Shown one piece after another: positions 3,259 through 26,856 of a stretch of DNA of 56,968 nucleotides. A model generated the notes under the pieces. It worked only from the letters and a program-made list of their open reading frames with translations. It had not been told where the DNA came from and did no database searches. Position 1 is the first letter of the stretch; each line of letters opens with the position of its first letter. The translations under genes and the position numbers were made by a program. Source of the DNA: a virus (lineage: Duplodnaviria > Caudoviricetes); the IMG/VR virus record IMGVR_UViG_3300046779_001715, positions 1-56,968 of that record, one strand, 5' to 3'.

Positions 3259-4962
3259 TTACAACCTGTTCTGCAAATCACGTATGAACTTGGAATATGT
3301 CTCATTACCGTCTGCAACTTCCCACAAATCTCCACCCATCATTTCAAACTCATGTTCCAGTCCATCTTCAATAATAGGTGCTGGCAACATATCATCGTCC
3401 ACCTGATTCATGGTCTCTAATTGAATTTGTTTGCGAATGTCGTGATTGACGATTTCTTTGAAATATTGTTGTGTAGATACCCATCCAAAAATAACTAATG
3501 ACATAACCAAGTCATCATTTGCACCCAGAGCCGCAGCAAAAGAGTTCTTTTGTTGTTCAAAGGTGGTCAATTCTGAATATGTATCAAAGTCATTAATCGT
3601 TAATTTGTCACCTTCAATCAAAGTTTTAAGGTTGGAACAACCAATCGCCTTGACTTGTGGTGACATTTTCAAACCCATTTGAATGCCACGGGCAAATCCG
3701 GCACTCAATTGTTGTGGTTTCTTATTGCCTGTAAATACTTTCCATAGGTTTTCATACTCAAAATCTGTGTGTAAAGAGTCTGCAACCTGTGGGTTGTTGT
3801 TAATTTCTACCAAAACATATGCGTCATTATAGTATCTGGCTGCATTGTAGATAACGGTAGGGAATAGAATAGGTGTGATTGACGAACTGGCATATGTTGC
3901 CACTTGTTTGTATGGTGTTTCTGAGATATCAATAACTTGAAATGCTGAACTGTCTAAGTTTTTACCCTCAGATACGTCAACACATATACAATACAGGTGG
4001 TCTCTTTTAGAACCATTGATACCTTCTTTGACCGGATGTTCATAGATTCTCAGCAAATCATGTTGGGCAATCGGGTCACGATATGCAATGGTCTGCAACT
4101 TGTAACCAGATACCAATGTATTTGATGAACCCAAGAACTCGGTTTCAAACTCTTGTCTGAACTGACGTTCACTGGTGTTGCGGATTGTTTCTTCTTTCCA
4201 AGCCTCATCACGACCTGGTACCATAGACCAATGAATTTCAAATGTCTTATAGTTGTTCTTCTTGTTGATTGCATCCATCCATAACTTGTAGAACAGATTC
4301 ATACCGTTAGGTGTAGATACAATAATAATCTTGGAAGTTTTACCAGATGAAATAACAGGATAAACAGAGTTAAAGAATTCTTCGGCGATATTATTTGGAA
4401 CGAACGCAAATTCATCCAAGAATACTAGGTTGAAAGAACCACCACGAACCGCAGAACTTGATGTAGATGCTGCAACAATCTTGGATCCATTTTCTAGTTC
4501 AACGTTACCTTTGTTCCACACCACAATACCTTGTTGTAACCACATAGGCAAGTTTTCATATGCCAGTTGGTATTTGCCAAGAATGTCACGTGCAAGTGAA
4601 CCTTTGTTGGCTAGAACAGCAACGTTTTGTGTATCTGTAAACAATGTCAACCAAAGAAGATATGCAACCGAGGTGGTAGTTTTACCAACCTGACGAGGAC
4701 ATTTTGTGATTGAGAAACGATTGTTGTGATATGTGCGGATCATTTCTTTCTGAAATGGCCACATCTTAAACTTCATTAGACCTACGTCAACGTTGACAAT
4801 CGTTACATAGTTTTCTGCAAAGTATACAGGATCTTTTGCACACTTTTTATATTCTTCAACAGTTTCTTTAGTCCACTCTACCTTAACACCAACTTTTTTA
4901 AGTAAAGGGTTGTCTCTATACGAGTCTTTATTTTCTAAAACATAATCATCATCATCAATCAT
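3259..4962 (-). CDS. gp17: Terminase large subunit
   Basis: Walker A PRQVGKTT, Walker B VFLDEFAF, coupling motif IIVSTPNG, FRQEFE, nuclease acidic motifs VDVSEG and NDDLVMSLV. Confidence 0.98.
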   Translation of the reverse strand: MIDDDDYVLENKDSYRDNPLLKKVGVKVEWTKETVEEYKKCAKDPVYFAENYVTIVNVDVGLMKFKMWPFQKEMIRTYHNNRFSITKCPRQVGKTTTSVAYLLWLTLFTDTQNVAVLANKGSLARDILGKYQLAYENLPMWLQQGIVVWNKGNVELENGSKIVAASTSSSAVRGGSFNLVFLDEFAFVPNNIAEEFFNSVYPVISSGKTSKIIIVSTPNGMNLFYKLWMDAINKKNNYKTFEIHWSMVPGRDEAWKEETIRNTSERQFRQEFETEFLGSSNTLVSGYKLQTIAYRDPIAQHDLLRIYEHPVKEGINGSKRDHLYCICVDVSEGKNLDSSAFQVIDISETPYKQVATYASSSITPILFPTVIYNAARYYNDAYVLVEINNNPQVADSLHTDFEYENLWKVFTGNKKPQQLSAGFARGIQMGLKMSPQVKAIGCSNLKTLIEGDKLTINDFDTYSELTTFEQQKNSFAAALGANDDLVMSLVIFGWVSTQQYFKEIVNHDIRKQIQLETMNQVDDDMLPAPIIEDGLEHEFEMMGGDLWEVADGNETYSKFIRDLQNRL

Positions 4963-5381
4963 TCTTGACCTTTTAGGAGTTTATTCAACTCTGCGGTAGA
5001 ACCAACAAAAATGGCTTTGTCAATCTTGGTATCGCCTTCACCTTTTTTCTTACCATCCATATCTCGTATAGTTTTTTGGATGTTTAGAAGTTCTTTATTT
5101 GCATCTACCATGTTCTTTAATAAAGTACCATAGACCTCAAAGGCTCTTGGGTGTTGACCTGCCTTGGCAATTTGTAGAATTTCATCCATTGCTTCTTTGC
5201 CTTGGTCGATAATTTCTTGCAAGTTTTCTTTTGACTGTTGGTATGCATCAGTCAAATCTTGTTTCATATCTGGATCATTATAATTTACTGTAACAACCTC
5301 TGAAGATTTTTTTGTTTTTTCTTCAGGCACAATTGGTGTCACATCAAATATTTTTTCCATATTTTTATCAAAAGTGTTCAT
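4959..5381 (-). CDS. gp16: Terminase small subunit
   Basis: HPRAFEV and AIFVGST.EL.KLL motifs of T4-like gp16; overlaps the gp17 start. Confidence 0.93.
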   Translation of the reverse strand: MNTFDKNMEKIFDVTPIVPEEKTKKSSEVVTVNYNDPDMKQDLTDAYQQSKENLQEIIDQGKEAMDEILQIAKAGQHPRAFEVYGTLLKNMVDANKELLNIQKTIRDMDGKKKGEGDTKIDKAIFVGSTAELNKLLKGQE

Positions 5382-11754: not shown

Positions 11755-12138
11755 TTAAATATCAATCTTGTTGACGTTTTCCCAATAATTATCACGTGTT
11801 GGTTTGCTTGATTTTGGATCATGTTGTTCACCAAATATATCTTCGATAACTTCACCATCAATATTTCTAAGAGCAAACACACAATAGTAATTTACATCAT
11901 CAGTCAAAGCAGTTATTATGTGTTTAGATTCTTTACGAATAACAATAAATGTTGGTGCAGTAAATGTTTTAGGTTCTTCACCATCAACACTAACACTCAC
12001 AGAACCACTTGTCAATAATGTAACGTGGTCGAAATAATGTTTGTGTCCTGAGTGAAAATCACCAGCATTTTCTATAATATTCTGTCTGACCCATATGTTT
12101 CCAAAGAAACCTAAATCAATATGCTTATGATTATTCAT
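11755..12138 (-). CDS. Cupin-fold protein
   Basis: GH.H.FDH.TLL.SGSV.V..DG (cupin motif 1) and I.I.....H.I.A (motif 2). Confidence 0.75.
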   Translation of the reverse strand: MNNHKHIDLGFFGNIWVRQNIIENAGDFHSGHKHYFDHVTLLTSGSVSVSVDGEEPKTFTAPTFIVIRKESKHIITALTDDVNYYCVFALRNIDGEVIEDIFGEQHDPKSSKPTRDNYWENVNKIDI

Positions 12139-15100
12139 TAGAATTTAGTGTGTGATGTTGTTGGTGGTGTTGTATTAGAGGTATATCGTGCATATCTACT
12201 AATTCTCAAATCTGTCATGTTACCTGTAATGTGAGTTGAACCTGCACCATCTTTACCTATGTAAAGGTATCGGTTACCCCAATTTTTAGTGTCACTATAT
12301 GTTGCACCTACTCTTGATCCATTTAAATATAAAGTGCTGATACCAGAAGAACGCACCAATGCAATATGATTCCATGCACCAAAAATAGGTGCGCCGCCAT
12401 TGATTGCTGCTCCAATGGTTGGTGAAATATAATATGTGATGTTACTGCCACTATAATATAGTAATAATCTATTAGTACCATCATTTGAATCTAACCAATC
12501 TTGTCTTGCGTTGACAGTTGGATAAGTCCAAAATTCGATTGTGAAATCACCTGTACCAAATGCATAATTTGGAGTTGATACTTGATACAAGTAATCACCA
12601 CTACCATCAAATAACATACTGCTCTTTTTGGTAGTATTTTTTGTGACAAAAGGCTGGAATGGTGTTACTTTTGTGTCACCAGTTCTTGTGAGTGTAAACG
12701 CATTAGTTGATTTATCAATAAATCTGTTTGACTGACAGGTTAACAAGCTAGTGTTTGCTATTGCAGTTAATGTTGAAGTAGGTGGTGTGGTGTTTGCAGT
12801 GTACAATGCAGTGCCACTCAACACTCTTAAGTTACTAATATAACCGTTAAAATAATCTAGTGGAGTGTTTGGATAGTATCCAATTCTTGCATTGGTTTGA
12901 AATATTGAATTTGTCCAATTTGCTGATGATACATCAATTACACCATTCAAAAATATTCTAAGTGTATTACTTGCATCTCTAGTTACTGCAATATGATTCC
13001 ATTGATATGGTGGTACTGTTGTTGCACCAGTGATGTTACCTGAAGGGTGTGTAATTGTTAATTTGTTGGATGTGTTTATATTAATAGTAAATCTATTAGA
13101 ATCGGATGTGTTATACTGAGAGTATATCATCTGATTGGTGGAAGTATTAACTTTGTTGGTGTATATCCATGCTTCAATTGTGAATTGACCAGTACTTGGT
13201 ACGGGTATTCCAGTAACATCCAAATAGTCACCAGTGCCATCAAAGTAATTACTATAGTTTTCATAATAAGGACTATTTGATGTTGTCGATTTTACTTGAC
13301 CAAGAGTTTCAAGGCTGCCAGTCATTGAATAATCTGGAATTCCAGGTGCATTATTAATTAATAAAACATCATTAACTGTTGTTGTTGGTGCCGCTGGTGG
13401 ATAGAAAGTTGATGTATATAATCCGGTACCTTTTACAACACGAACATTGCTCATAAATCCAGTAACAACTGTTGTACCACCACCATCTTTACCAATATAC
13501 ACTGGTTGATTAGTAGAAAAATTATTACTGTCTGCATATGTGCTACCAACTTGTGTTCCATTTATAAACAACCTAGTTGATCCAGAAACACGACAAAGAG
13601 CAATGTGTTGCCATGCAGCTAATGCCATGGTAGAACCAGTAATTGCAGTTGTGGAACCTACAAAGTAATTGATATTTGTGCCATCATAATAAATTAGTAA
13701 CCTGGTACCGCCGCCATTACAATCAAACCAATCTTGTCTTGCGTTAACAGTTGGATAAGCCCAAAATTCAATAGTAAAATCACCTGTACCAAATGCAAAT
13801 GCTGAGCTTGATGAAACAGTTAAATAATCTCCTGTGCCATCAAAGTAAACACTACCACCATATTTGGTTGTGTCCCAAGGTTGTGCGCCGCTTGTTGTGT
13901 AATTATAAAATGGGTTTGCAGTCTTGGTTGTAACAGTTGCGGTGATTGTTGCTGTATTTGCTTTGTTGACTGATAAATCTTCAAAAATATTTGATGATGT
14001 TAGGGATAGATAACTTGTACCGTTTGCAAATGGACTGAATGAATTAGTACCAGCAGCACCACCGGCCGCAGTTATGGTAAATACATTATTACTTCTATCA
14101 ACAATTGATGTAGATTGAGCAATCAACAACTGTGTATTTGCAATTGCTGTTAATGGGCTTGTAGGTGTTGAGGTGTTTGCTGTATATAATCCAGTACCTT
14201 TTAAGATTCTGATATTACTCATATAACCGGTAACAACAGTTGAACCGCTGCCATCTTTTCCAACATAAACCGGTTGATTACTAGAATAGTTTGTAGTATC
14301 TGTATATGTGCTGCCAACTTGTGTTCCATTTATAAACAACTTAGTTGATCCGGATACACGAGACACAGCAATGTGTTGCCATGTATTTAATGCCATGGCA
14401 GGACCAGTAATTCTATCTGAGTTACTTGCATTATAAACAATATTAGTACCATTATAATAAACCAATAATCTAGGACCAGTGCCGTTATTTACATCAATCC
14501 AGTCTTGTCTATTGTTTACTGTAGGGTATGCCCAAAACTCAACAGTGAAGTCTCCTGTACCAAACGCAAAGGCTGCATTTGATGGAACAGTTAAATAATC
14601 ACCAGTACCATCAAAGAAAACAGAACCACCATATACAGGTATTTCTGGTATTGCAGCAATGTTTGTTCCTGCACTTTGTGTTACAGTCAATTTCGATGTT
14701 GGTGGTGTAAAGTTTCCTGTGTATACGCCAATATTTCTAACGATACGTAAATTACTGATGCTGCCATTAAATTCAGATGTTGAATAACCTGGACTATCAC
14801 CAACACTACCTATTGTTAATGTGTTGGTGCCACCAAAATCATCATTCGTTGTATATGTAGAACCAACTTGTGTTCCATTGATATACAATTTAGTTGATCC
14901 TGCAATTTTAACTATGGCCGCATGATACCATTTGTTTGTGGTAACCACACCTGTTCCTGTGATTACTCCAGTATTTCCAATATTATAAACCACATTTGAA
15001 CCAGTGGTAAATAACATAGGTCTAGCATATGAACCACCAGAACCACTGTATCTAAGGTCCCAAATCCAATTGTTTTCTGTATTTGTAACAAAGAACCAAC

Positions 15101-18100
15101 ACTCAATTGTGAAATCGTTTGTGCCTAATCCAAATATTGGTGTTACACCTGCAGCTGATGGAATAATTGCATAACCAGAACCATTGAAAAGAGCACTATA
15201 AGTTGAAGGTGTCACAGTAACATTATTGAATGGACTATATTTTTGAACTGATGCGTCAGCAACTTTTGTTATTGAAAGATTATTTGGACTGTTATCGACA
15301 AAAGAATTTGATTGACAGGTCAATACGGTTGTATTAGCAACTGCTGTTAGTGGTGATGTGCTCGGTGTAAATGCTGAATCGTATAAAGATGTTCCTTTTA
15401 CAAAACGAACATTGCTTATGTAACCATAAAATATAGAGTTGGTATCAGATGCACTTCCACCAATGTTTAATGTATTTGTCGTTGCAGTTAATGATGCACT
15501 GGATGTAAATGTATGTACTTGTGTACCATTTAAGAATACTCTAAATGTTGAACCACTTCTAGTATAAGCTAAATGATACCATTGGTTGACTGCTACTGTA
15601 CCTAATGCTACCTGATTTGCCAAATTCCAAGAACCGTTATCAGAACTTGCATATAATTTTAAAGCACCACTACCTTCTATCCAAAACAAATATGGTACAA
15701 CACTAGCAAGCCTGTGAGATATAATGTATTGAGCACCAGAACCACTGGTGCCTGTAAGTACCATTGTATTGAACCATAGTTCTAGTGTAAAGTCTGATGT
15801 TCCTAATGTACCATGTTCAGTTGAAGATGCTACGGTCAAATAATCTCCAGTACCATCAAAGTAAGCACTCCAATTACTTCCATATGGATTTAGACTATTT
15901 AATGATGCGTTACCACTTCTAGTAATAAGGTTTTTAAACGAACTATTGTCAACAATCAAACTATTTGTACTTGATTGTTTTGTTTGACACATTAATAAAG
16001 CAGTATTTGGAGAATCACCTGAAGATGCTGGTAAATAAGGTGCAGTGAAAGCACTACTATAAAGGCCTGTTCCTTTTATGATTCTGAAATTAGACAAATA
16101 AAATAGTGCTGCACCACCAGCATTTGGTCCGATTGGACGAGCTGGGCTGGCAGAGTAATTATTTGTATCTGTTATAGAAAATACCTCAACACCATTTAAG
16201 AAACCTTTTGTTACACCTGAAACTCGACTAACTGCAATATGTGACCATGCATTAATTGGTATAATACCCGTTGCGCTAGTTCCAATATTTGAACCATTAA
16301 AACCCCAAATAATTCCACTATTATAATGTATAAGGTACCAGGTATTTGTTAATGTAGTTGGTCTAGAAATATTATGACCAGTGGTTGTACCGGCATTAGT
16401 TGCCCACAACCAACAATCAACAGTAAAGTCACCGGTTCCAAATATTTGTCCTGCACTATTAGCAGTGCCTTGCATACCTACCAAATAATCAGATGTTGTG
16501 GGGAAGTATGTTGAACCTTCATTACCGGAAAGTGTTAAGGTTTGATTATTTGCGGTAATTGATGTTACATTTGTTAAGAATGGGTTGACTTGAGAAATGG
16601 TGGTATCACCATTCTTTGTAATAGTAATTACATTGTTTGAGTTGTCAATGAATCTATTTGATTGACATGTTAGTAAACTTGTATTTGCAACTGTTGTTAG
16701 TTGTGATGTTGGTGGAGTGAATGCTGAAGTGTATACTGCTGTGCCTTTGATGACACGAAGGTTGGAAATATATCCGGTAGTGTGACCTTGGGATGATTGT
16801 CCACCTATAGTAAAACCAGTTTGAGTATAATTTGTGCTTACTGCTCCCGAAGTTAATAAAACACCATTTTTAAAAATGTAGGCGGTGCCACTTTTTCTAG
16901 TTATTGCATAATGATTCCAAGAATTAATGGTTTCAGTAGATGTTGCAGTTAGGTCACTAGCAGTATTAAATCTTGCCAATTGAATTGCTGTACTGGTAAT
17001 ATAAATTGACAAATAAGTTGTTGTTCCACCAGTTGCATAAGTAGCAGTATAGAAGACATTTCCTGGTGTGCTTGCTCCTGGAGCAGCAGTCCAATATGCC
17101 CAAAATTCGATTGTGAAATCTTCTGTGCCTATAGCTAAATTAGTATTGCTAGCACCACTTAAATAATCCCCAGTACCATCAAAATAGTTACTGTAGTAAC
17201 CTTCTGTGTATGGATTCATTGAACTAACGACTGGTGCACCTGTTGCCACCATATCAATATAATTAATGCTTGCATCACTATCAAAAGGCGTTGCAAGCGA
17301 ATCACTATTTAACAATAAATTATTGTATTTGAAATAAAAGTCATTAAGAGAAATCGTCCAACCTACATATCTTACAGCACTTCTTCCTGTTGTCGCTGCG
17401 GTTGCAGTCAGTGTTGTGTAAATTGTTTCAGATGTATTTGGTGTACCATAGATTGTACTACCACTGATAAACACATTTGCAGGTAAAGTATTTGCTGTAT
17501 ATGTGATGCCATAACCTGCTGCACTTGTAGCAGACAAAGTTACGTTACTCATTGGTGCATTGCCAACTAATTCATATAAATTATTATTTTCTGGTGAACT
17601 CCATGTTACAACATCGGTGTTAATTGTTAACGTGAATGCTCTAGTTGTATTTTGATTTTCACTATCTATTGCATCAACAGTAAATGAATATGTTGTACTT
17701 GAGTTATCTACTGGTGCGGTGCCTGAAATTAAACCATTGGCTGATAGTGTTGATCCAGAAGGCAAAGAACCTGATAACAATGAATATGTAATTGAACTAT
17801 CGCTTGTTGCAATGATTGATTCATTGATTGATGTGGTTTCATAGAATGAACCAATGCTTCCGGCAGGTGTTAAGTATGTTGGAAATCCAGAGTATACTAA
17901 ACCTGGTACCAAAATGCCTGTACCACCACCAGAATTTGTAACAAAAACAGTATAACTACCAGACGATAGTGCTGGTGCAATGAAGGATAATCTATTTTGA
18001 TCCAAGAATGTTACTACTGATATTGTAGTACTACCAACAAGAACGGTTGCACCAGGTGCAAAACCTGAACCATTAATAATGATGGTTTGACCACCAGCTG

Positions 18101-18260
18101 GATCAACAGTCGTATCGTCTAATGGAACATAAGAAACATCTGTGACTGTAAAGGAGTTAACTGTTGGTATTAGAAAAGTTTGTTGATTGAAGTGTTCACC
18201 AAGACCTATTAATCCTATACCATCACGTGCTCTTTTACCTCTAGAACCGGAATTAAACAT
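12138..18260 (-). CDS. Large virion adhesin: IPT/TIG and Ig-like domains followed by about 8 LamG/concanavalin-A-like domains
   Basis: N-terminal GGQTI.I.GSGF..GATV (IPT-like) and SGSLP.G.TL...G.ISGT (Ig-like), then 8 modules with FDGTGDYL...GTGDFTIE.W...W.HIA..R......F.NG...GYISNLR. Confidence 0.85.
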   Translation of the reverse strand: MFNSGSRGKRARDGIGLIGLGEHFNQQTFLIPTVNSFTVTDVSYVPLDDTTVDPAGGQTIIINGSGFAPGATVLVGSTTISVVTFLDQNRLSFIAPALSSGSYTVFVTNSGGGTGILVPGLVYSGFPTYLTPAGSIGSFYETTSINESIIATSDSSITYSLLSGSLPSGSTLSANGLISGTAPVDNSSTTYSFTVDAIDSENQNTTRAFTLTINTDVVTWSSPENNNLYELVGNAPMSNVTLSATSAAGYGITYTANTLPANVFISGSTIYGTPNTSETIYTTLTATAATTGRSAVRYVGWTISLNDFYFKYNNLLLNSDSLATPFDSDASINYIDMVATGAPVVSSMNPYTEGYYSNYFDGTGDYLSGASNTNLAIGTEDFTIEFWAYWTAAPGASTPGNVFYTATYATGGTTTYLSIYITSTAIQLARFNTASDLTATSTETINSWNHYAITRKSGTAYIFKNGVLLTSGAVSTNYTQTGFTIGGQSSQGHTTGYISNLRVIKGTAVYTSAFTPPTSQLTTVANTSLLTCQSNRFIDNSNNVITITKNGDTTISQVNPFLTNVTSITANNQTLTLSGNEGSTYFPTTSDYLVGMQGTANSAGQIFGTGDFTVDCWLWATNAGTTTGHNISRPTTLTNTWYLIHYNSGIIWGFNGSNIGTSATGIIPINAWSHIAVSRVSGVTKGFLNGVEVFSITDTNNYSASPARPIGPNAGGAALFYLSNFRIIKGTGLYSSAFTAPYLPASSGDSPNTALLMCQTKQSSTNSLIVDNSSFKNLITRSGNASLNSLNPYGSNWSAYFDGTGDYLTVASSTEHGTLGTSDFTLELWFNTMVLTGTSGSGAQYIISHRLASVVPYLFWIEGSGALKLYASSDNGSWNLANQVALGTVAVNQWYHLAYTRSGSTFRVFLNGTQVHTFTSSASLTATTNTLNIGGSASDTNSIFYGYISNVRFVKGTSLYDSAFTPSTSPLTAVANTTVLTCQSNSFVDNSPNNLSITKVADASVQKYSPFNNVTVTPSTYSALFNGSGYAIIPSAAGVTPIFGLGTNDFTIECWFFVTNTENNWIWDLRYSGSGGSYARPMLFTTGSNVVYNIGNTGVITGTGVVTTNKWYHAAIVKIAGSTKLYINGTQVGSTYTTNDDFGGTNTLTIGSVGDSPGYSTSEFNGSISNLRIVRNIGVYTGNFTPPTSKLTVTQSAGTNIAAIPEIPVYGGSVFFDGTGDYLTVPSNAAFAFGTGDFTVEFWAYPTVNNRQDWIDVNNGTGPRLLVYYNGTNIVYNASNSDRITGPAMALNTWQHIAVSRVSGSTKLFINGTQVGSTYTDTTNYSSNQPVYVGKDGSGSTVVTGYMSNIRILKGTGLYTANTSTPTSPLTAIANTQLLIAQSTSIVDRSNNVFTITAAGGAAGTNSFSPFANGTSYLSLTSSNIFEDLSVNKANTATITATVTTKTANPFYNYTTSGAQPWDTTKYGGSVYFDGTGDYLTVSSSSAFAFGTGDFTIEFWAYPTVNARQDWFDCNGGGTRLLIYYDGTNINYFVGSTTAITGSTMALAAWQHIALCRVSGSTRLFINGTQVGSTYADSNNFSTNQPVYIGKDGGGTTVVTGFMSNVRVVKGTGLYTSTFYPPAAPTTTVNDVLLINNAPGIPDYSMTGSLETLGQVKSTTSNSPYYENYSNYFDGTGDYLDVTGIPVPSTGQFTIEAWIYTNKVNTSTNQMIYSQYNTSDSNRFTININTSNKLTITHPSGNITGATTVPPYQWNHIAVTRDASNTLRIFLNGVIDVSSANWTNSIFQTNARIGYYPNTPLDYFNGYISNLRVLSGTALYTANTTPPTSTLTAIANTSLLTCQSNRFIDKSTNAFTLTRTGDTKVTPFQPFVTKNTTKKSSMLFDGSGDYLYQVSTPNYAFGTGDFTIEFWTYPTVNARQDWLDSNDGTNRLLLYYSGSNITYYISPTIGAAINGGAPIFGAWNHIALVRSSGISTLYLNGSRVGATYSDTKNWGNRYLYIGKDGAGSTHITGNMTDLRISRYARYTSNTTPPTTSHTKF

Positions 18261-18619
18261 TAAGAAATTTCCTCAAAAGAACAAACACCTTGCAGTCTAC
18301 TATTGTTTCCTGCTGTCAATCTTAATGCATCACCCTCCATCAAATATAAAGAAAGTGTTTTATCTATCGCAGTGAATGATGTATCAGCCAATACAGAAAC
18401 TGTACTTACGATTTTATAAGCGGTTGTGTTTCTATACAAATCCACAGTAATATCTGATGCATTTGTACCATCAATATTGGAAATAATTAAAGTATTTATT
18501 TTATAAACTTTACCACTTGCTGATGGATTTTCAACAATTGCTGTTGCAGATGTGGTTATAGATTGTACTGCTGTGTTTCCAATAATTGTTGTTACATTGA
18601 CTATGTTTGGATTTGCCAT
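18260..18619 (-). CDS. Small beta-rich hypothetical structural/adaptor protein
   Basis: 119-aa ORF with AGGA RBS; similar to the 108-aa ORF at 19258-19584 (I.NI...A....V, L..GD.L...A/S motifs). Confidence 0.65.
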   Translation of the reverse strand: MANPNIVNVTTIIGNTAVQSITTSATAIVENPSASGKVYKINTLIISNIDGTNASDITVDLYRNTTAYKIVSTVSVLADTSFTAIDKTLSLYLMEGDALRLTAGNNSRLQGVCSFEEIS

Positions 18620-18629
18620 TTTTTATTCC

Positions 18630-19256
18630 TTAAATGCCAAATATTATTGACATTGCAATAGATTTTCCCGTGGAAACTCCGCCACTTGTTACAGTATTTA
18701 TTACTGTATTTCCACTTAATGTAGTTACTTCAACCTTTGCACCATTTTCAAATGTTGAATCGAATGTGATTATATTATTTGTTACTGTATAAGTACTTCT
18801 TAACTGTATAATACCATCAACAACAGCAGTGACAAAATTTTCATCTGGTGGGTTTGCACTTAAAGTAAAGGTTGTAGTTAAACCATTTGCTGTGAATTGG
18901 TCTGTGTATACTGTTAATGCAGTATTTGAAGATGTGTTTGCTTTGTCAAAGGCAGCATTAGCGGTGTCTCTAGCATACGCATCTGTTGAACTTCCACCAG
19001 TATTTGCTTGAGCAAATGCCGCATTGGCTTGTATAAAGGCTGCATTGGCATATTGCGATGCGGCCGCAGCATTATCTGTAGCAGTGTTGGCTTGTGCATA
19101 GGCAGAATTAGCATATGCACCAGTTGTATTTTGTGAATCATAGGCTGAGTTTGCTTTAACAAACGCAGAGTTTCCAGTCAGGTATGCCGAGTTGGCATAA
19201 GAACCTGCCGTTCTTACTTCTTTGTTTGATTGGTCACCTATGTAAGTAAACTTCAT
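18630..19256 (-). CDS. Fibre connector: Ala/Asn heptads, about 60-aa beta module, hydrophobic C-terminal tail
   Basis: ANSAY repeats, then FTANGLTTTFTL...VDGIIQ...ITF module, ending TGKSIAMSIIFGI. Confidence 0.65.
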   Translation of the reverse strand: MKFTYIGDQSNKEVRTAGSYANSAYLTGNSAFVKANSAYDSQNTTGAYANSAYAQANTATDNAAAASQYANAAFIQANAAFAQANTGGSSTDAYARDTANAAFDKANTSSNTALTVYTDQFTANGLTTTFTLSANPPDENFVTAVVDGIIQLRSTYTVTNNIITFDSTFENGAKVEVTTLSGNTVINTVTSGGVSTGKSIAMSIIFGI

Positions 19257-19257
19257 A

Positions 19258-19584
19258 TCAGGTTATTTCTAATAAACTCACAATAACGTCAGCTGCTGAT
19301 GCATCACTGGTAGAAACTTTTAAAATATCTCCAGCTTCTAAAACTAATTTCTGTTCACCACCTATCGTGATTAGAGAATTGCCTGGATCAATTGATGCCA
19401 TTTTTACCAAATAATAATCTGAAGCACCAGACGTTACAATAACATTTGCAGTTATTGAATTGTTCAGTATGTTTGCGATTGTCATACCAATAACTGTGGT
19501 TGATACACCTACACCTGCTGTGTAAATGGTAGTTGGTGATGTTCCGACTGCTGCTTGTAGTTGATTTTTAAAAGTATTTGCCAT
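19258..19584 (-). CDS. Small beta-rich hypothetical structural/adaptor protein
   Basis: MANTFKN...VIGMTIANI...KLVLEAGD.LKV...DVIVSLLEIT; AAGGA RBS. Confidence 0.7.
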   Translation of the reverse strand: MANTFKNQLQAAVGTSPTTIYTAGVGVSTTVIGMTIANILNNSITANVIVTSGASDYYLVKMASIDPGNSLITIGGEQKLVLEAGDILKVSTSDASAADVIVSLLEIT

Positions 19585-19603
19585 TTAAATTTCCTTAATC
19601 CTC

Positions 19604-19611
19604 TATTTATT
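19604..19611 (-). promoter_or_regulatory. Putative late promoter (AATAAATA)
   Basis: TAAATA core in the spacer upstream of the 108-aa ORF. Confidence 0.5.
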
Positions 19612-19614
19612 TTA

Positions 19615-20634
19615 TCAACTAAAGGCGATTGTGAAAGCAATAATTTCAGAGTTTACATCTAGTGCAGTTGTTCCTGTATTTGCTTTTGCGAATGCTGCTT
19701 CAGCATGTGTATATGCAACATTAGAGTTTGCGAATGCTGCGTTAGCCTGAATGAAGGCACCATTTGCATATAGAGAAGCACCAGCTGCATTGTTGGTTGC
19801 TGTGTTGGCCTGAAGGTAAGCTGAGTTTGCATAAGAACCGGCTGAATTGGCAAAAGAAAATGCCACATTCGCATATGTTCCTGTAGTGTTTTGGGAACCA
19901 TATGCAGAGTTTGCTGCAATGAATGCCGCATTTGCATAAAGTCCTGCTGAATTTGCAGCCTCAAAAGCAGCTGCAGCACTTGCTCTTGCGGTCGTGTCTG
20001 TTGTACCGCCACCACCAGATAATAAATCACTACCGACACCCGCTGATGCAGCAGTCAGGTCAATGTAAGCACCTCTAGCAGAACCACCTTGTTCAAAGAA
20101 TCTTAATCTGTTTTGCCATACATCAATTGTTACACCTGTGCCACTCAAAGTCGTGTTGCTAACAGCTTTACCTAAAAGAATTTCACCGCCTTCATCACCA
20201 CCAACTGCCAATACTGTTAATTTACCACCACTACCAATTAAGAATTCGCCATCAAATGTTGTTCCACTTGTATTTGCAAGTGCGTTGTTTGCTTTATTGT
20301 ATGCTGAGTTTGCTTTATCAAATGCGTAACTAGGATCACCACCTGATGTTGCATTGATTGTGATTGTTTTTGTGGTGGTATTAGTGCTGATTGTTATATT
20401 ATCACCAGCAACAAAAGAAAGTGTATCTGATACACCACCAGCCAATATCAATGAGTTATTGGAATTGATTGTGTCAAACGAGAATTGGTTGGAGATGTAT
20501 GATGTTCCACCAAGACTGTTTTTATAATACAGTTTACCATCGGCGTAGTTGAGAGCAACCTCACCAAATGCAAGACCTGATGGTGTATTTCCTGTTACGC
20601 CTGATTTCTTTAACTGTATTGAGGTGTTTGACAT
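19615..20634 (-). CDS. Fibre protein with Mtd/hyaluronidase-like N-terminal module and Ala/Asn heptads
   Basis: IQLKKS....P..L..GE.A.N..DGKLY N-terminus; ANSA repeats; hydrophobic end EIIAFTIAFS. Confidence 0.65.
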   Translation of the reverse strand: MSNTSIQLKKSGVTGNTPSGLAFGEVALNYADGKLYYKNSLGGTSYISNQFSFDTINSNNSLILAGGVSDTLSFVAGDNITISTNTTTKTITINATSGGDPSYAFDKANSAYNKANNALANTSGTTFDGEFLIGSGGKLTVLAVGGDEGGEILLGKAVSNTTLSGTGVTIDVWQNRLRFFEQGGSARGAYIDLTAASAGVGSDLLSGGGGTTDTTARASAAAAFEAANSAGLYANAAFIAANSAYGSQNTTGTYANVAFSFANSAGSYANSAYLQANTATNNAAGASLYANGAFIQANAAFANSNVAYTHAEAAFAKANTGTTALDVNSEIIAFTIAFS

Positions 20635-20640
20635 TTACTT

Positions 20641-21255
20641 TTAAAAACTTCCGCCATCTTTGATGATACCTAAGTCCGTGACTGTATTTGCAGTCTCGTC
20701 TGTTTTATTTAACACATCAATTTTTTTACGTTTGGCAGGAGGTAATTGTAAATATTCAATCTTTGAATTTAGTTCTTCAATTTGTTGTTTTAATATATCA
20801 ACATTTTTTTTATGTTGTGAACTAATATCAATAATTTTTTTCTCATATTCATTACGAACCGACATGGTTTCTTCTCTGGCTTTAATTAACTCACCTTTGA
20901 ATGTGTCAACGTGAGTTGCCTGATTTTTGATACTATCATAATCTCGGTATGTGTTTTGCAAACTGGATAAATCGGTATTTAATTTCTGTATCGTTTGTTC
21001 GTGTTCAGAAATTTTGTCCTTTAAATCCTTAATTAGATTACTCTCTGTAATACTATTACTATTTCTAGCTTCAATCAGAGCAGTTTCTAACTCTATTTTA
21101 ACTTCATTCAATTCTTCAAGTTTTTTAGAAAGGTCTCCGATAACATCATCAGAGACCTTTGCATTTGCTTGCATAGAAACATTACGAATAACACAATCAG
21201 TCAACGAACTTGTCAGTGTTTCAATATAATGATTCAAATATTTTTCATTACCCAT
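20641..21255 (-). CDS. Coiled-coil hypothetical protein ending in DGGSF
   Basis: E/K/L/I-rich heptads over most of the length; AGGAG RBS. Confidence 0.7.
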   Translation of the reverse strand: MGNEKYLNHYIETLTSSLTDCVIRNVSMQANAKVSDDVIGDLSKKLEELNEVKIELETALIEARNSNSITESNLIKDLKDKISEHEQTIQKLNTDLSSLQNTYRDYDSIKNQATHVDTFKGELIKAREETMSVRNEYEKKIIDISSQHKKNVDILKQQIEELNSKIEYLQLPPAKRKKIDVLNKTDETANTVTDLGIIKDGGSF

Positions 21256-21297
21256 TTCAAACTCCTATCATGTAGAATAATTAATTATATAGTCAAG

Positions 21298-23145
21298 TTA
21301 GAATTGACCTCCATCTAGTGTTGTTGTCCACACTGGAACACCTGCATTGGTTGTTGTAAGAATCTGGTTAGACCATGTTTGGTCGGATGTACCTGCTGCA
21401 GCAGTAACTGCCATTGCATTTGTGCCATCGCCATATACAATACCCTTTGCGGTGAATGTAGAAGCACCTGTACCTCCTTGTGCAACAGTCAATCCAGAAA
21501 TGTCAGCAGCAGTAGCAGCAGTCACACGACCATATGCATCTACTGTCAACGATGTGATTGTCTTAGCAGCACCAAGTGTACCTGTCAAGGTGTATGTGGC
21601 ATTTGCAAGTGTAGAAATTGCACCTGTTCCTGAACCAACCAACAATGCACCATTGGTGAATGTAGAAGCACCAGTACCACCTTGTGCAACTGATAGACCA
21701 GAAATGTCTGCGGCTGTTGCGGCTGTTACACGACCATAGTCATCAACAGTCAAAGATGTAATTGTTTTTGCTGCGCCTAATGTGCCTGTTAATGTATAAC
21801 CTGCATTAGCAATTTGTTTCAATCCGTTGGTACCATCACCAACAACGATTTGACCAGCAGTAAATGTAGATGCACCAGTACCACCTTGGCCAACTGTTAG
21901 ACCAGAGATTGCACTGAATGTTGCAGCAGTTAATCTGCCATACGCATCAACTGTCAATGATGAAACTGTGTTATTTGCAGCACCAGAACCTGTTGCAGTA
22001 TATGTACTGTTTGCTAGTGTTGTCAATGCACCTGTACCAGCACCAACAATAATTGCACCATTTGTAAATGAACTTGCGCCAGTACCACCTTGTGATACTG
22101 CTAGGTCTGTAGTTAATTGCAACTCAGCAATTTTTGCAACAGTAGAAACTTCTAATGTGGATGTTGTGATTGCTGTAGCAAGGATGTTTGCATGTAAGTT
22201 TGCAACATGGAAACCATTGCTAGTAATGTCAATGACGTTGTTGTCTGGTTCAACATTGTAACTATCAAAAATGTAGAAGTCTTTATTACCAGCATGACGA
22301 ATCATACCAGCATGTAAGTTAGCAGAACCATTGTTATAGTTTGCTACCCAACCAATATCAACTACATCAGATACGTAGTTATTACCTGCTAAGTATAGTA
22401 GTGGGTCAGAGACTTCAAGTGTGTCAACATTAATGACTGTTTCTGTACCAAGAACACTCAAGTTACCACTGATAATAACATCACCATCAATAGTTTGAAT
22501 TAAACTTGGAGTATTTGCACGAACAACTGTTGTATCAACACTAAAAGAAACTGCGTTGTCAGATACTGTTGATGTGATACCTTCACCACCAATAAGTGTA
22601 AGTGTATCAGATGCAAGATTAACTGTGTCTGTACCAGTATCACCAGCAATGCTCAATGCAGTAGAGATTGAACTTGAATTTGCGATGGCCATGATACGGC
22701 CGTTTGCAGCAACAGTAACAATAGGAACAACTGATGCACCACCGTATGTGCCAGCAGATAAACCAGAAACTGTATTAAGAGAAGCATTTAATGTAACAGC
22801 AGCAGTACCATCAAAACCAACTGCTGAGGCAGTAATATCACCACCTGAAATGTCGAAGTTTCTTGAGTTTAGTAATTTAGTTGAACTGTTTGCATTACCA
22901 TATAAAGCACCAAAGAAACCGTTATTCTCATCACGTTTGACTAACGTGGATGCAACGTTTGCTGCGGTAGCTGAGTCAACAGTGGAGGTATAGAATTGAC
23001 CACCAATATTAAATGCACCAGTACCATCAGCAGTACCAAAGAATAACGTATTTGATTGATATGAATACGCTAATTCACCTGCTTTCAGTGAACTAGGACG
23101 TCCTGTACTACTAGAACGTTTGATTAAAATTGATGTATTTGCCAT
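21298..23145 (-). CDS. Tail fibre-like protein: Mtd-like N-terminal module, 68-aa repeats, C-terminal DGGQF
   Basis: MANTSILIKRSS..G.P.SL..GELAYS N-terminus; repeated L.V.QGGTGASTFT...LTVD.YGR.TAAT units. Confidence 0.75.
   Translation of the reverse strand: MANTSILIKRSSSTGRPSSLKAGELAYSYQSNTLFFGTADGTGAFNIGGQFYTSTVDSATAANVASTLVKRDENNGFFGALYGNANSSTKLLNSRNFDISGGDITASAVGFDGTAAVTLNASLNTVSGLSAGTYGGASVVPIVTVAANGRIMAIANSSSISTALSIAGDTGTDTVNLASDTLTLIGGEGITSTVSDNAVSFSVDTTVVRANTPSLIQTIDGDVIISGNLSVLGTETVINVDTLEVSDPLLYLAGNNYVSDVVDIGWVANYNNGSANLHAGMIRHAGNKDFYIFDSYNVEPDNNVIDITSNGFHVANLHANILATAITTSTLEVSTVAKIAELQLTTDLAVSQGGTGASSFTNGAIIVGAGTGALTTLANSTYTATGSGAANNTVSSLTVDAYGRLTAATFSAISGLTVGQGGTGASTFTAGQIVVGDGTNGLKQIANAGYTLTGTLGAAKTITSLTVDDYGRVTAATAADISGLSVAQGGTGASTFTNGALLVGSGTGAISTLANATYTLTGTLGAAKTITSLTVDAYGRVTAATAADISGLTVAQGGTGASTFTAKGIVYGDGTNAMAVTAAAGTSDQTWSNQILTTTNAGVPVWTTTLDGGQF
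21450..22105 (-). repeat. 204-bp (68-aa) coding tandem repeat, 3 full copies plus a partial copy
   Basis: The QGG-coding motif recurs at 22085, 21881, 21677 and 21473, an exact 204-bp period. Confidence 0.9.
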
Positions 23146-23184
23146 TTCTCTTCCTTATAAGGTTTAGATTTTATAATTATCCTG

Positions 23185-23192
23185 TATTTATT
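23185..23192 (-). promoter_or_regulatory. Putative late promoter (AATAAATA)
   Basis: Overlaps the stop of the 69-aa ORF, upstream of the 615-aa fibre gene with AAGGA RBS. Confidence 0.55.
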
Positions 23193-23400
23193 AAAAACTG
23201 CCACCGTCAAATTCTACCGGTAATGTTTCTGTAACCACTTGTGTGATGTATCCATTACCTGCAACAGGTATGACAGCATTATTGCTGTTACCGATGAAAA
23301 GTTGATTTGATACGAAAGAATATGCCAACTCACCGTCAGCCAAACTTAATGGTGCCGTGTTAGCATAAGACCTTAATATCTGAATCGTTGTATTTGCCAT
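23191..23400 (-). CDS. Minimal 69-aa protein: Mtd-like N-terminal module plus DGGSF tail
   Basis: MANTTIQILRS...P.SL.DGELAYSF.SN.LFIG is paralogous to the N-terminus of the 615-aa ORF; start overlaps the upstream stop (TAATG). Confidence 0.75.
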   Translation of the reverse strand: MANTTIQILRSYANTAPLSLADGELAYSFVSNQLFIGNSNNAVIPVAGNGYITQVVTETLPVEFDGGSF

Positions 23401-23933
23401 TAAAAGAACCCTGAATCTGAACCAGTAAAGGCAACATAAGATACTGAATTTGATATAACTTGTTGCAATACAACCGGGTTCAATACACCATCAGTTGTGT
23501 TTGCGGTTGTAATACCACCTTGTTGTGTGATAACAATTGCTGTTGGATGAGGAACATCAATTGAAGTTGGTGGTACAAATGCAATAGAACCTGATGTTGC
23601 GTCAGCCTTAATTGCCATTGTTCCAAGAGTGATTGTGTTACCACTTAGAAACAAAGACTTGAAACGCATATCTGGTGCACCTAAATCATACAGTTCATTT
23701 TCAGATGGAACTAAATCACCATTTATTTTTGGTGTTGGTGTGACTTGAAACCCACTGGTATTAGCATCATATGTAACAAAATCACCAGTGCGAGAAAATG
23801 GTGGTATTCTTAAGTCGGAAGCATCTGATAATTTAGTTGTTCCGTAATTGATTGATTGTACCTTTGTGGTTGTCTGTTGACTACCAGTACGTACTTTGAT
23901 TGTCGTAGGCGTATTTACTGTTACTCTAGTCAT
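23400..23933 (-). CDS. Hypothetical fibre-associated protein ending in DSGFF
   Basis: Contains KLSDASD and G.LVP.....YDLG....RFKSLFL fibre-shaft-like motifs; tightly packed in the operon. Confidence 0.65.
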   Translation of the reverse strand: MTRVTVNTPTTIKVRTGSQQTTTKVQSINYGTTKLSDASDLRIPPFSRTGDFVTYDANTSGFQVTPTPKINGDLVPSENELYDLGAPDMRFKSLFLSGNTITLGTMAIKADATSGSIAFVPPTSIDVPHPTAIVITQQGGITTANTTDGVLNPVVLQQVISNSVSYVAFTGSDSGFF

Positions 23934-23942
23934 AGTAGACCC

Positions 23943-24287
23943 TTAAAATACAGTAACTCTAGGCAAAACGTTTACAATTCCTTCTAAAACTCTAGTCACA
24001 TTATTTGATGAACTTTTAATCGCAACATCATACACATATCGTCCTGCTGGTATATTTGCTGTGTTAGCAGAATTAATAGTTAAAGATATTGTTCCGTCTG
24101 TTTCTGGTTCAACAATAGTAATTATAAATTCACCGGTTGTATTAGTGGAATAATATGATTTTCTGATTTGGCCTTTAGCAACGAAATCAGTTAAGTCAAA
24201 AGGATTACCGTTTGCATCATCCAATGTTATTGATGTGACAAAATCGGTACCTTGTTCCAAAAATAATTCTTGATATCCAGCTGCCAT
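23943..24287 (-). CDS. Putative virion structural protein
   Basis: L.LEQG.DF...DLT...A..QIRK.Y...I.L.....T..I..GRYVYDV...RVLEG.V.V.P.VT, a pattern I recognise from T4-like phage structural regions. Confidence 0.7.
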   Translation of the reverse strand: MAAGYQELFLEQGTDFVTSITLDDANGNPFDLTDFVAKGQIRKSYYSTNTTGEFIITIVEPETDGTISLTINSANTANIPAGRYVYDVAIKSSSNNVTRVLEGIVNVLPRVTVF

Positions 24288-24316
24288 GGTTTTTTACTGT
24301 TAAAATTGTTATCCAT

Positions 24317-24324
24317 TATTTAGT
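24317..24324 (-). promoter_or_regulatory. Putative late promoter (ACTAAATA)
   Basis: TAAATA core in the 53-bp spacer upstream of the 114-aa ORF. Confidence 0.55.
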
Positions 24325-24340
24325 AATAATGGAATAGAGT

Positions 24341-25501
24341 TTACCACTCAACGAATACGCCACCACCGCCACCACCACCGCCACCACCAGCAACACCAGT
24401 ATTTGGTGCGACTGACAATGTTTGTCCATTTCCGCCAGCACCTCCAGAGATACCACCACCTGCACCACCGTTTGCATTATTTGCTGTTGAACTTGAACCT
24501 GCAAATCCTAATCCGCAAGTAATTGTGCCACCTAAATTTGTTAATGTGCCATTGCCAGTTCCACCAGCACCACCACCGGAAAGTCCGCCACCTCCAGCAC
24601 CGCCAGCGCCCAGTTGAATATCTACACTGCCAACAGTACCTTCTCCAATTGGTGAGAATTTAGATAATAGTACAGCACCAGTAACATAAACATCACCATT
24701 TGATGGTAATGGTAAATTGCTTGAACTACGGAATGTACCACCGACACCACCAGATGCAACAACATAATTACCAAATGAACTGGATTCACCATTGTAACCT
24801 TGGATTCTACCTGCACTAGACGCATAACCACCACCACCGCCGGCACCAACTGTGACATTTATGGTTGATCCTGGTGTAAGACCAGATACGATTGCTTGGC
24901 CTGCACCACCATTACCACCATTGCCGCCATAACGTGTGTCGCCAGCACCATATGTACCACCGCCACCACCGCCACCGCCACCCCAAAGAGTAACTTTAAC
25001 ACTTGAAACACCAGCAGGTACAGTAAAAATTCCACCTGATTGAAATAATTGGTAACGTGGACCTGAGTAACTTCCACCACCATCTGCTGATATTGGTGTA
25101 TAACCTAAAGCACTGATAATATCAGTGTTACTTAAAGCAACATTTGCAGCACTTGTAATGCGACCTTGCTGGTCTACAGTTACAACAGATACTTTACCTG
25201 AACCGCCATATGTTCCTGGTGTTACTGCTGTGTTTGCCAACTGACTTGATGAAATATTGCCAGTTAATTTAGTTGTAGCAACACTTGCGATTTGTGCATT
25301 TGTAATCAAACCACTGATACTTGTATTTGAAAGTGTCAGAGAAGCATTAGCTGCATATGTCAATCTACCCTGTTGGTCTACTGTAATTACTGGTGCAACA
25401 CCAACACCACCATATGTTCCTGGTGTTACTATTGTGTTTGCAATTTGTTCGGCAGATACATTACCTGTCAAATAAGAGAAGTCTAACTGATTAAATGACA
25501 T
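24341..25501 (-). CDS. Fibre protein with GTYGG..TVDQQGR repeats and a C-terminal glycine-rich domain
   Basis: Two VTPGTYGG...TVDQQGR.T.AAN units, then FTVPAGVSSVKVTLWGGGGGGG...GGVFVEW. Confidence 0.7.
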   Translation of the reverse strand: MSFNQLDFSYLTGNVSAEQIANTIVTPGTYGGVGVAPVITVDQQGRLTYAANASLTLSNTSISGLITNAQIASVATTKLTGNISSSQLANTAVTPGTYGGSGKVSVVTVDQQGRITSAANVALSNTDIISALGYTPISADGGGSYSGPRYQLFQSGGIFTVPAGVSSVKVTLWGGGGGGGGGTYGAGDTRYGGNGGNGGAGQAIVSGLTPGSTINVTVGAGGGGGYASSAGRIQGYNGESSSFGNYVVASGGVGGTFRSSSNLPLPSNGDVYVTGAVLLSKFSPIGEGTVGSVDIQLGAGGAGGGGLSGGGAGGTGNGTLTNLGGTITCGLGFAGSSSTANNANGGAGGGISGGAGGNGQTLSVAPNTGVAGGGGGGGGGGVFVEW

Positions 25502-26856
25502 TACATTTTTCCTTTAATTTCTGCAATTTCTGCTTTCAATTCTCTGATGGCTTCAAATGCTAACGCACACAATTTTTCATAATCAACTGCGAGTGTACCA
25601 TCTGGTTTTGTTCTTACGGCAATTGGAAATGCTGCCTGTACATCATTCGCAATAACACCAAAATCTTCTCTGCGAACAAAGTAACCATCTTCACCTCCAC
25701 GATTGTTAATATATTCATCAGTCCAATCAAATAACTTACCACCAATCGCATCAACTGTATCTAGTGCATTTGGAATAGAACGAACATTCTGTTTGAATTT
25801 AATATCAGAAGTGTAGTAAGCAGTGATATCGTTTGTTGCACGAATTTCACCAGCAGTACCAGATGCAGCAGTGCCAACACCTAAAGAATTAACTTGATAA
25901 TTGTTAGTTGTATTTAATCCATTTGCTGTTGTTGCAGTAGTTGCTGTTGTTGCACTGCCAGCCGTAGTAGCAGTAGCTGCTGAACCAGCACTTGTGGCAT
26001 ATGAAGAATTTGCCACAAACATGGAAGTTTGTGCAGTCCAAATTGGAGCACCTGCGCCACCGCTAGTCAATACAAAACCTGCTGTTCCAACTGTTGTGAA
26101 TCCAGTTTGGTCAGTGGCTTTTTGGTATAATACAGTACCAGTTGCACCACCAATAATATTTCCGGATAGTGATGAAGCAGTATTTGCTTTGTTGAATGCT
26201 AGTTGTGCTTTGGCATCAGCTGCAACACCTTTATCATATGCAGTTTTAACTGAGTTTGGTGCTGCTGCACGACCATCTGAAACGCTGGATGTATCTGAAA
26301 TACTATCTATAAGTGCAACAGCACCAGGTTGTATAACATATTCAATAACCACATTGTTTGCACCAGCTGGTGGTGGAGAACTGAATGTTAATTGTGCGCC
26401 TGTAGCTGTAAATATAGTTGGATATTGTTTAATACCATTTACATAAACACCAACTGTATTCGCACCAGAAACGGAACGAGATAAGTTATAGATTGTTTGT
26501 GAACCAGTACCATTGAAGTATTGATATTCTAGTGTAACACCAAAAGTTGTTTGATTGGTAACTGTTGTAACAGTTTGTGTTGTAACACCAGTGATACGAC
26601 CTTGGCCATCAACCGAAATAACTGGATAAGCAGTTGGTGAACCATAAGAACCTGCTGTTACGGTTGTGTTTGCTAATTGTGTTCCAATAATTTTGCCAGT
26701 AATTTGAGTATTAGCAATACTTGGTGTGGCATTTGCTGCATATGTCAACCTACCTTGTTGGTCTACAGTAACAACTGGTATGACAGTTGCGCCACCATAT
26801 GTACCTCTTGCCACGGCCGTATTGGCCAACATTGAAGGTGTTACTTTTGTTGTCAT
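25501..26856 (-). CDS. Tail fibre/spike with C-terminal intramolecular chaperone (peptidase S74-like)
   Basis: YTSDIKFKQNV..I.NAL...G..FDW...GVIA.DV...P.AV...LAVDYEKL..L..EAI.EL is the autocleaving chaperone signature. Confidence 0.85.
   Translation of the reverse strand: MTTKVTPSMLANTAVARGTYGGATVIPVVTVDQQGRLTYAANATPSIANTQITGKIIGTQLANTTVTAGSYGSPTAYPVISVDGQGRITGVTTQTVTTVTNQTTFGVTLEYQYFNGTGSQTIYNLSRSVSGANTVGVYVNGIKQYPTIFTATGAQLTFSSPPPAGANNVVIEYVIQPGAVALIDSISDTSSVSDGRAAAPNSVKTAYDKGVAADAKAQLAFNKANTASSLSGNIIGGATGTVLYQKATDQTGFTTVGTAGFVLTSGGAGAPIWTAQTSMFVANSSYATSAGSAATATTAGSATTATTATTANGLNTTNNYQVNSLGVGTAASGTAGEIRATNDITAYYTSDIKFKQNVRSIPNALDTVDAIGGKLFDWTDEYINNRGGEDGYFVRREDFGVIANDVQAAFPIAVRTKPDGTLAVDYEKLCALAFEAIRELKAEIAEIKGKM

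Follow-up and report, generated by a model that had tools for sequence, protein, structure and literature searches.

The window analysed here is the whole of IMG/VR virus record IMGVR_UViG_3300046779_001715, 56,968 bases of a tailed phage. We studied a set of five fibre genes whose products carry a short C-terminal peptide (the tag), a small N-terminal domain (the N-module), or both. A PHROG scan found the structural module of a T4-like myophage in the window. The families matched were baseplate wedge and hub, gp13/14/15-like neck, both terminase subunits, sheath, and tube. With its Kyanoviridae cyanomyophage homologues, the large terminase shares no more than 55% identity. The five genes sit in a long fibre-gene block, with baseplate genes on one side and neck genes on the other, all on the minus strand. 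A blastn search of the region against 50,697 phage records gave no DNA match, and the phage is therefore without a close cultured relative. In tblastn searches, the fourth protein of the set (204 amino acids [aa]) had no match, and the first (177 aa) had one weak match. The features of the locus are as follows, with the LtfC-like gene that precedes the set given first.

23943..24287, minus strand: LtfC-like beta-sandwich protein, 114 aa; adjoins the chain on its upstream side.
23400..23933, minus strand: first tagged protein (putative adaptor), 177 aa, without an N-module; ends DSGFF.
23403..23417, minus strand: tag 1, DSGFF, the final five codons of the 177 aa gene.
23191..23400, minus strand: "mini" protein, 69 aa; N-module (residues 1-48), short variable linker, tag DGGSF.
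23194..23208, minus strand: tag 2, DGGSF, of the 69 aa protein.
21298..23145, minus strand: fibre protein, 615 aa (phrog_15769); N-module at about residues 1-50 (nucleotides [nt] 22996-23145), repeat-rich shaft, conserved C-terminal 30 aa, tag DGGQF.
21301..21315, minus strand: tag 3, DGGQF, of the 615 aa protein; the coiled-coil gene is always next.
20641..21255, minus strand: coiled-coil protein, 204 aa; ends DGGSF.
20644..20658, minus strand: tag 4, DGGSF, of the 204 aa protein.
19615..20634, minus strand: distal protein, 339 aa, no tag, ends TIAFS; N-module of the gp37-like "KKSG..GE.ALNYADGKLYYK" subtype (nt 20485-20634), conserved region at residues 50-95, variable body.

Across its six frames, the window contains 857 stop-to-stop open reading frames (ORFs) that are 30 aa or longer. 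Four of them end in D[GS]G.F, and these are exactly the 177, 69, 615, and 204 aa genes. A looser tag pattern added no further ORF among the 857. The 69, 615, and 339 aa proteins all begin with the pattern M(A/S)NT.I....S....P..L..GE.A, which is restricted to these three among the window ORFs. Each of the three genes comes directly after a gene that ends in a tag. The 177 and 69 aa genes overlap in TAATG, and 6 nt separate the 204 aa gene from the 339 aa gene. The original prediction had described four consecutive tagged genes and three copies of one N-terminal module, each behind a tagged gene, and both descriptions are upheld by these counts. Tags outnumber modules by four to three because the tag of the 615 aa protein precedes the coiled-coil gene and not an N-module gene.

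The 114 aa protein matches Pfam family PF23926 (LtfC) over residues 6-106 with 30.2 bits, over the cut-off of 27. It also matches phrog_3304, "L-shaped tail fiber protein assembly," with an E value of 1.4e-23. A Pfam scan assigned no family to the 177, 69, 615, and 339 aa proteins. The 204 aa protein has weak coiled-coil-type Pfam matches, all under the cut-offs.

Related loci were collected with an IMG/VR scan using the 615 aa protein. It yielded 78 loci, in which the 615 aa homologue has 40-88% identity. The gene order is kept in the 78 loci. It begins with the LtfC-like gene, found upstream of the chain (66 members), and a small or medium tagged adaptor ending in D[AGSM]G.F. An optional mini gene follows, encoding 65-88 aa with module and tag; it is missing from 10 of the 78 loci. 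Next are a fibre of about 600 aa with a module and the end [LIM]DGG.F and a coiled-coil protein of 150-250 aa that ends in [KER]DGG.F. The last gene encodes a variable distal protein with a module, 97-1431 aa long. Clustering of the 70 full-length fibre homologues that have both module and tag gave 46, 28, and 14 clusters at 95%, 80%, and 60% identity, respectively.

The end D[ASM]G.F is present in 47 of 48 members of the 177 aa family, the other member being a frameshifted fragment. The tag is the same on short (73-80 aa) and on long (177-179 aa) bodies. At positions 4519-4994 of one locus (L017), the 177 aa gene is split by a frameshift. All 54 members of the mini family have the tag. An alignment of 38 mini sequences shows a conserved module, a variable linker, and a conserved tag. 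The ORF at the mini-gene position of two loci (L069 and L071) starts inside the module (MAYSF..) and is either a truncated gene or one with a mis-called start. The coiled-coil family has the tag in all 76 complete members, with D200, G201, G202, and F204 invariant in the alignment. A hypervariable linker of about 20-25 aa lies between its YLQL[PT]PAKRKKID motif and the invariant tag [KER]DGG.F. This is the layout of a tethered docking peptide. The YLQL[PT]PAKRKKID motif directly before the linker is basic and nearly invariant.

The tag is present in 280 of the 754 complete genes of the 78 loci. Among the 484 genes that the patterns did not class as preceding an N-module or coiled-coil gene, it is present in 11. 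Inspection showed that ten of these were pattern misses and that one lay in a disrupted locus (L055). The misses precede an N-module variant (six), a coiled-coil variant (three), or a mis-started truncated mini gene (two). Background tag use is therefore essentially nil. Pairing each N-module with the tail encoded immediately before it gave 124 distinct combinations, and the tail bears a tag in every one. Where the module is of the mini type, the tag is D[A/M/S]G (36 of 36 distinct pairs), and where it is of the distal type, the tag is DGG (44 of 44). Fibre-type modules follow DGG in 37 distinct pairs, DAG in 6, and DCG in 1. The N-module pattern lies within 7 residues of the start in 197 of 199 matches, and the other two use alternative start codons. 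No fused tag-module form was found in the related loci. The tag codons vary synonymously at every position (GAT/GAC, GGA/GGT/GGC/GGG, TTT/TTC), and the preferred codons differ between families. Selection therefore acts on the peptide, not on the DNA.

Tags and modules were also found outside this clade, in the following arrangements.

Pelagibacter phage Mosig: 82 aa protein ending NAGAF, then 569 aa module protein ending DGGSF, then untagged 69 aa coiled coil, then 126 aa module protein.
Limnohabitans phage DC31: LtfC-like protein, then 92 aa protein ending ESGQY, then 589 aa module protein ending DGGTY, then 118 aa module protein.
Synechococcus siphophage S-CBS2: four module genes; the preceding genes end SGGSF, DGGTF, SGGTFGSG, and DGGEIT.
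P-SSM2 and AG-345-E02: 75 aa protein ending NGGNF, then 527 aa module protein ending DGGTF, then untagged coiled coil, then gp13.

The adjacency of tag and module that the original prediction proposed to survey thus extends from the related loci to Mosig, DC31, S-CBS2, P-SSM2, and AG-345-E02. The peptide is conserved among phages that have no detectable DNA similarity. For the DC31 block, the available description of Pakpunavirus P7-1, in which fibres attach to triplex loops, gives no help. In ten loci on contigs of metagenome-assembled genomes (MAGs), the tag is upstream of the module gene in five.

A profile of 38 modules was compared with 1.84 billion cluster representatives. It matched 10,415 at E values up to 0.001 and 1,318 at E values up to 1e-10. 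Among the best 150 of the 10,415 representatives, the module is at residues 1-5 in 149, and 39 have a strict tag at their own end. The exception is P0175, a protein of 1,740 aa with one N-terminal module and a second at about residue 430. A tag-like SYGHL lies two residues before the internal module, so that both elements adjoin in one chain. P0175, which is known from its protein sequence alone, may be an unsplit version of the two-gene joint or else a sequencing artefact.

The module is homologous to residues 5-50 of the T4 long-tail-fibre protein gp37. An hhalign comparison of 13 modules with gp37 residues 1-70 gave a probability of 95.8% and an E value of 7e-9 over 43 columns. In BLASTP, the N terminus of the 339 aa protein is 38% identical to that of gp37 over 40 aa (E value, 2e-7). 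When the module profile was run over the whole T4 genome, gp37 was the sole match (E value, 1.7e-9). The gene directly before gp37 encodes gp36, which ends in DFGYY. Among the gp36 relatives, 118 of the 120 listed, of 316 found, end in D-[FY]-G-x-[YF]. Divergent relatives end in LDYGIF or LDYGEF, near the LDGGQF of the 615 aa protein. The available text of PMC3004832 has trimeric gp36 binding the N-terminal region of gp37. That of PMC9603124 has the C-terminal end of gp36 bound to the N-terminal end of gp37. The joint is already known from T4 genetics and biochemistry.

The tagged proteins were also compared with gp36. PF03903 (Phage_T4_gp36, gp36 residues 56-195), a model that stops before the DFGYY tail, found no match in the four tagged proteins at E values up to 0.01. 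Comparison of the 177 aa family with gp36 by hhalign gave a probability of 0.1%, and the bodies are unrelated. What is shared is therefore the joint and not the proteins. We searched the open literature for this arrangement; subscription journals lay outside the scope. The gp36-type terminal motif (DFGYY) was not found described there. The strings DGGxF, DGGSF, DGGTF, and DGGQF had no phage context among the matches listed. The tag-module pairing rule, its serial use, a protein that is hardly more than two joint halves, a linker-borne tag, and spread across phage families were not found either.

We consider it likely that the five genes encode a segmented fibre whose pieces are joined in gene order by serial joints of the gp36-gp37 type. 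The T4 joint would be used several times in series, because the module is homologous to gp37, the tag is a gp36-type end motif, and binding of gp36 to gp37 has been reviewed. Physical contact between tag and module is suggested mainly by the T4 precedent and by comparative genomics. The structure would be a tail fibre (or whisker) of a T4-like myophage, built from separately encoded and presumably trimeric pieces. One half of each joint would be the C-terminal D-[G/A/S]-G-x-F-COOH of the proximal protein. The other half would be the beta domain of about 45 residues at the extreme N terminus of the next gene's product.

Gene order would then be assembly order. The LtfC-like 114 aa protein is a candidate anchor or collar, and it would be followed in turn by the adaptor (177 aa), the connector (69 aa), the shaft (615 aa), the coiled coil (204 aa), and the variable distal protein (339 aa). 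The distal protein is probably the receptor-binding piece. Tag flavour would match module subtype and fix the order, with D[ASM]G tags for the mini module and DGG tags for the fibre and distal modules. The tag of the 615 aa protein perhaps binds the conserved N terminus of the coiled-coil protein. The original prediction had seen the 69 aa protein as a possible self-polymerising extender. This is not favoured, since mini modules follow D[A/M/S]G tags and the protein's own tag is of the DGG type. It would instead be a one-step connector, with a module of the type that follows D[A/M/S]G and a tag of the DGG type.

Structure predictions were made for the single proteins and for one joint. The AlphaFold2 (AF2) monomer of the 69 aa protein has four short strands and a disordered tail. 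Residues 11-50 have a predicted local distance difference test (pLDDT) score of 81-87. The AF2 monomer of the 177 aa protein is poor, with a mean pLDDT of 58.6 and values below 50 for the first 33 residues. Fold searches with the 69 aa model gave nothing significant in Foldseek (best E value, 0.21) or VIA-align (best Z score, 3.2). The weak matches are tied and include the trimerisation domains of collagens XV and XVIII (XV: Z score, 3.2), Mtd residues 5-49, and HylP1.

For the joint, three chains of residues 1-95 of the 339 aa protein were predicted together with three chains of residues 140-204 of the 204 aa protein, and the family alignment of each protein was supplied. The score was 0.52 (runs, 0.52, 0.51, and 0.52), and the best of three controls scored 0.00. 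The runs agree in at least 40% of contacts. The pLDDT is at least 40 for the partner (41-60) and 88-90 for the others. The mark used for such predictions is reached by 116 of 157 solved complexes and by 2 of 215 mismatched pairs, a calibration set unlike a prediction of three plus three chains with their own alignments. Scores of 0.60 or less at the mark belong to only 18 of the 157 solved complexes and to both of the passing mismatches. The original prediction had proposed modelling trimeric N-modules with tag peptides. The outcome, which included no interface, is weak support for the pairing.

Several observations weigh against a simple chain of tag-module joints. A prediction that passes at 0.52 is more often wrong than right unless the pairing is likely beforehand. 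The module model had no significant match in either fold search. The PDB has no chain for gp36 or for gp37 residues 1-97, and the T4 joint is therefore not known at the atomic level. A PDB sequence search with gp37 residues 1-140 matched only a gp34 repeat, gp36 matched nothing, and the best hit of the module profile was an unrelated protein (E value, 0.053). In the available part of a 2026 T4 preprint, the distal rod is modelled at low resolution only. The coiled-coil gene after the 615 aa tag carries no module in any relative. Tag flavour and module subtype covary, but each flavour belongs to one gene family, so common descent is a confounder.

Other points of this kind come from outside the clade. 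Five of the ten MAG-contig module loci have no upstream tag. The 617 aa module gene of P-SSM2 comes after an HNH-like gene and has no upstream tag, and the Mtd_N-type protein of S-IOM18 has none. The coiled-coil gene is untagged in Mosig and P-SSM2, and one Mosig N-module gene is two genes beyond the nearest tag. The docking chain of the original prediction therefore stands in part. Head-to-tail joining agrees with the T4 homology and with the adjacency in all distinct pairs, and the junction between the 615 and 204 aa proteins is unlike a simple chain.

The same ends could be independent caps. The tag would be a C-terminal cap and the module an N-terminal trimerisation or attachment domain, and the two would co-occur as parts of fibre genes in one operon. 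The pieces would attach separately, to the baseplate, the collar, or some other common site, and form no chain. The module's resemblance to trimerisation domains, weak and non-significant (collagen XV, Z score 3.2; Mtd 5-49, Z score 3.1), fits this explanation. So do the 615 aa tag with no module gene after it, the module genes with no upstream tag, and the low level at which the joint prediction passes. Against it stands the direct adjacency of tag and module in all 124 distinct pairs, where flavour also matches subtype. The 204 aa family bears its tag on a hypervariable linker far from the coiled coil, unlike a structural cap. The T4 precedent of gp36 binding the N-terminal region of gp37, the fusion P0175, and a joint score of 0.52 against 0.00 for controls also speak against caps, and we regard them as unlikely. 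Slightly less probable again is a shared third partner, in which the tags would be a common address label and would all bind the LtfC-like collar, a chaperone, or a baseplate site. Four near-identical tags against three modules would suit such a label. The LtfC-like gene is always directly upstream of the set, and the available text of PMC10713586 has LtfC of phage DT57C binding fibre termini by strand augmentation. In T4, however, where gp36 bears the tag and gp37 the module, gp36 is known to pair with gp37. S-CBS2 has tag-module pairs with no LtfC-like gene annotated in the stretches examined, and family-specific tag flavours argue against a single receptor.

The conserved junctions could also act at the DNA level, as recombination linkers for the swapping of fibre cassettes, with peptide conservation as a by-product. 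Conserved motifs in gp37 of T-even phages have been put forward as sites of recombination. Beyond the last joint, the distal protein varies enormously in length (97-1431 aa) and at its C terminus, and module exchange at that point is therefore frequent. DNA linkers are nevertheless very improbable here, and we rejected them on the synonymous variation at every tag codon within families. The preferred codons also differ between families, and the peptide is conserved across phages that share no detectable DNA similarity. Serial joints of the gp36-gp37 type remain the preferred reading.

Binding of tag to module, if real, would allow multi-protein fibres to be reconstructed from sequence in uncultured phages that have the module (10,415 cluster representatives). 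It would give a defined interface for the unsolved gp36-gp37 joint of T4. It would also offer a natural connector with which receptor-binding pieces could be swapped in host-range work on laboratory phages. More tentatively, and with the odds somewhat against it, the tags and modules may be a general specificity-coded connector system of tailed phages, in which each tag flavour fits one cap subtype of about 45 residues. If so, the flavours D[ASM]GFF, [FV]DGGxF, KDGG[ST]F, DFGYY, and DYGTL would make fibre architecture and assembly order readable from gene ends. Mini proteins would be adaptors between one flavour and the next, and unrelated phage families could trade distal receptor-binding pieces simply by keeping the cap.

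Other features of the window were noted. Shuffled sequences would be expected to contain the T4 late-promoter consensus TATAAATA 5.3 times, and the window has it only once (42199, minus strand). A 2,040 aa protein (window 12138-18260, minus strand) has eight repeated domains, each of about 170-290 aa. It has eight stretches that match several PHROG "baseplate wedge" or virion structural families, with E values down to 8.5e-173. A phrog_36881 repeat of about 45-60 aa is common to the 615, 386, and 451 aa proteins (window 21298-26856, minus strand). By eye, this type of repeat reads ..QGGTGA..F......VD..GR.T.., and several tandem copies are present in the shaft of the 615 aa protein. The 451 and 1,241 aa fibres upstream have C-terminal S74 intramolecular chaperone domains.

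A second end-to-start grammar is present at window 18260-20634 (minus strand). A fibre protein with a hydrophobic tail is followed by one of two paralogous proteins of about 110 aa. In the first pair, the 339 aa protein (..IIAFTIAFS) precedes a 108 aa protein that starts MANTFKNQ and ends LLEIT. In the second, a 208 aa protein (..AMSIIFGI) precedes a 119 aa protein that starts MANPNIVN and ends FEEIS. Such pairs are also present in related loci, in Mosig (126 aa ..IVFGG, then 115 aa), and in MAG loci (118 aa ..MAIALG). They may be gp37/gp38-like pairs of a fibre tip and an adhesin or chaperone.

Three known systems resemble the locus. The first is Mtd_N (PF18454), the N-terminal beta-prism found in the major tropism determinant (Mtd) of Bordetella phage BPP-1 and in cyanophage structural proteins. 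The available text of PMC10743442 describes it as a small beta domain at the N terminus of a trimeric receptor-binding protein, thought to attach the protein to the fibre. The likeness is a small N-terminal beta domain with a similar sequence pattern. Two of the 13 modules match Mtd_N weakly, at an E value of 0.051, and the Mosig module reaches 12.1 bits against the cut-off of 26.3. The window proteins had no match to PF18454 at E values up to 0.01 and remain under this cut-off, which BPP-1 Mtd and the S-IOM18 protein pass. The module monomer model superposes weakly on Mtd residues 5-49, with a Z score of 3.1 and a root mean square deviation of 2.5 Å over 42 residues, tied with unrelated matches. 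In BPP-1, mtd comes after a gene with the end DLGGIA, which is loosely tag-like, and the module profile had no match in BPP-1 at E values up to 10. The systems differ in that the window modules fall under the Pfam cut-off and the S-IOM18 Mtd_N-type protein has no upstream tag.

The second system is LtfC-LtfA of phage DT57C. According to the available text of PMC10713586, LtfC forms a dodecameric collar in which LtfA is held through strand augmentation, a terminal fibre peptide docking on LtfC. The likeness is the LtfC-like beta-sandwich gene directly upstream of the first fibre piece. In DT57C, it is the N terminus of LtfA that sits on a collar at a siphophage tail tip, whereas the window has a repeated C-terminal peptide and an N-terminal domain in a myophage.

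The closest system is gp36-gp37 of T4. The module is homologous to gp37 residues 5-50, the upstream product ends in D-x-G-x-aromatic, and the tag gene is immediately before the module gene. Trimeric fibre pieces are joined in gene order in T4, as the available texts of PMC3004832 and PMC9603124 have it, and the pieces in the window are presumably trimeric as well. T4 has one joint, whereas the window has a series of three module genes and four tags. The gp36 family has F or Y as the second tag residue, where G, A, or S is found here. The tagged bodies are unrelated to gp36, and in the coiled-coil protein a flexible linker carries the tag. The 69 aa protein consists of hardly more than a joint's two halves.

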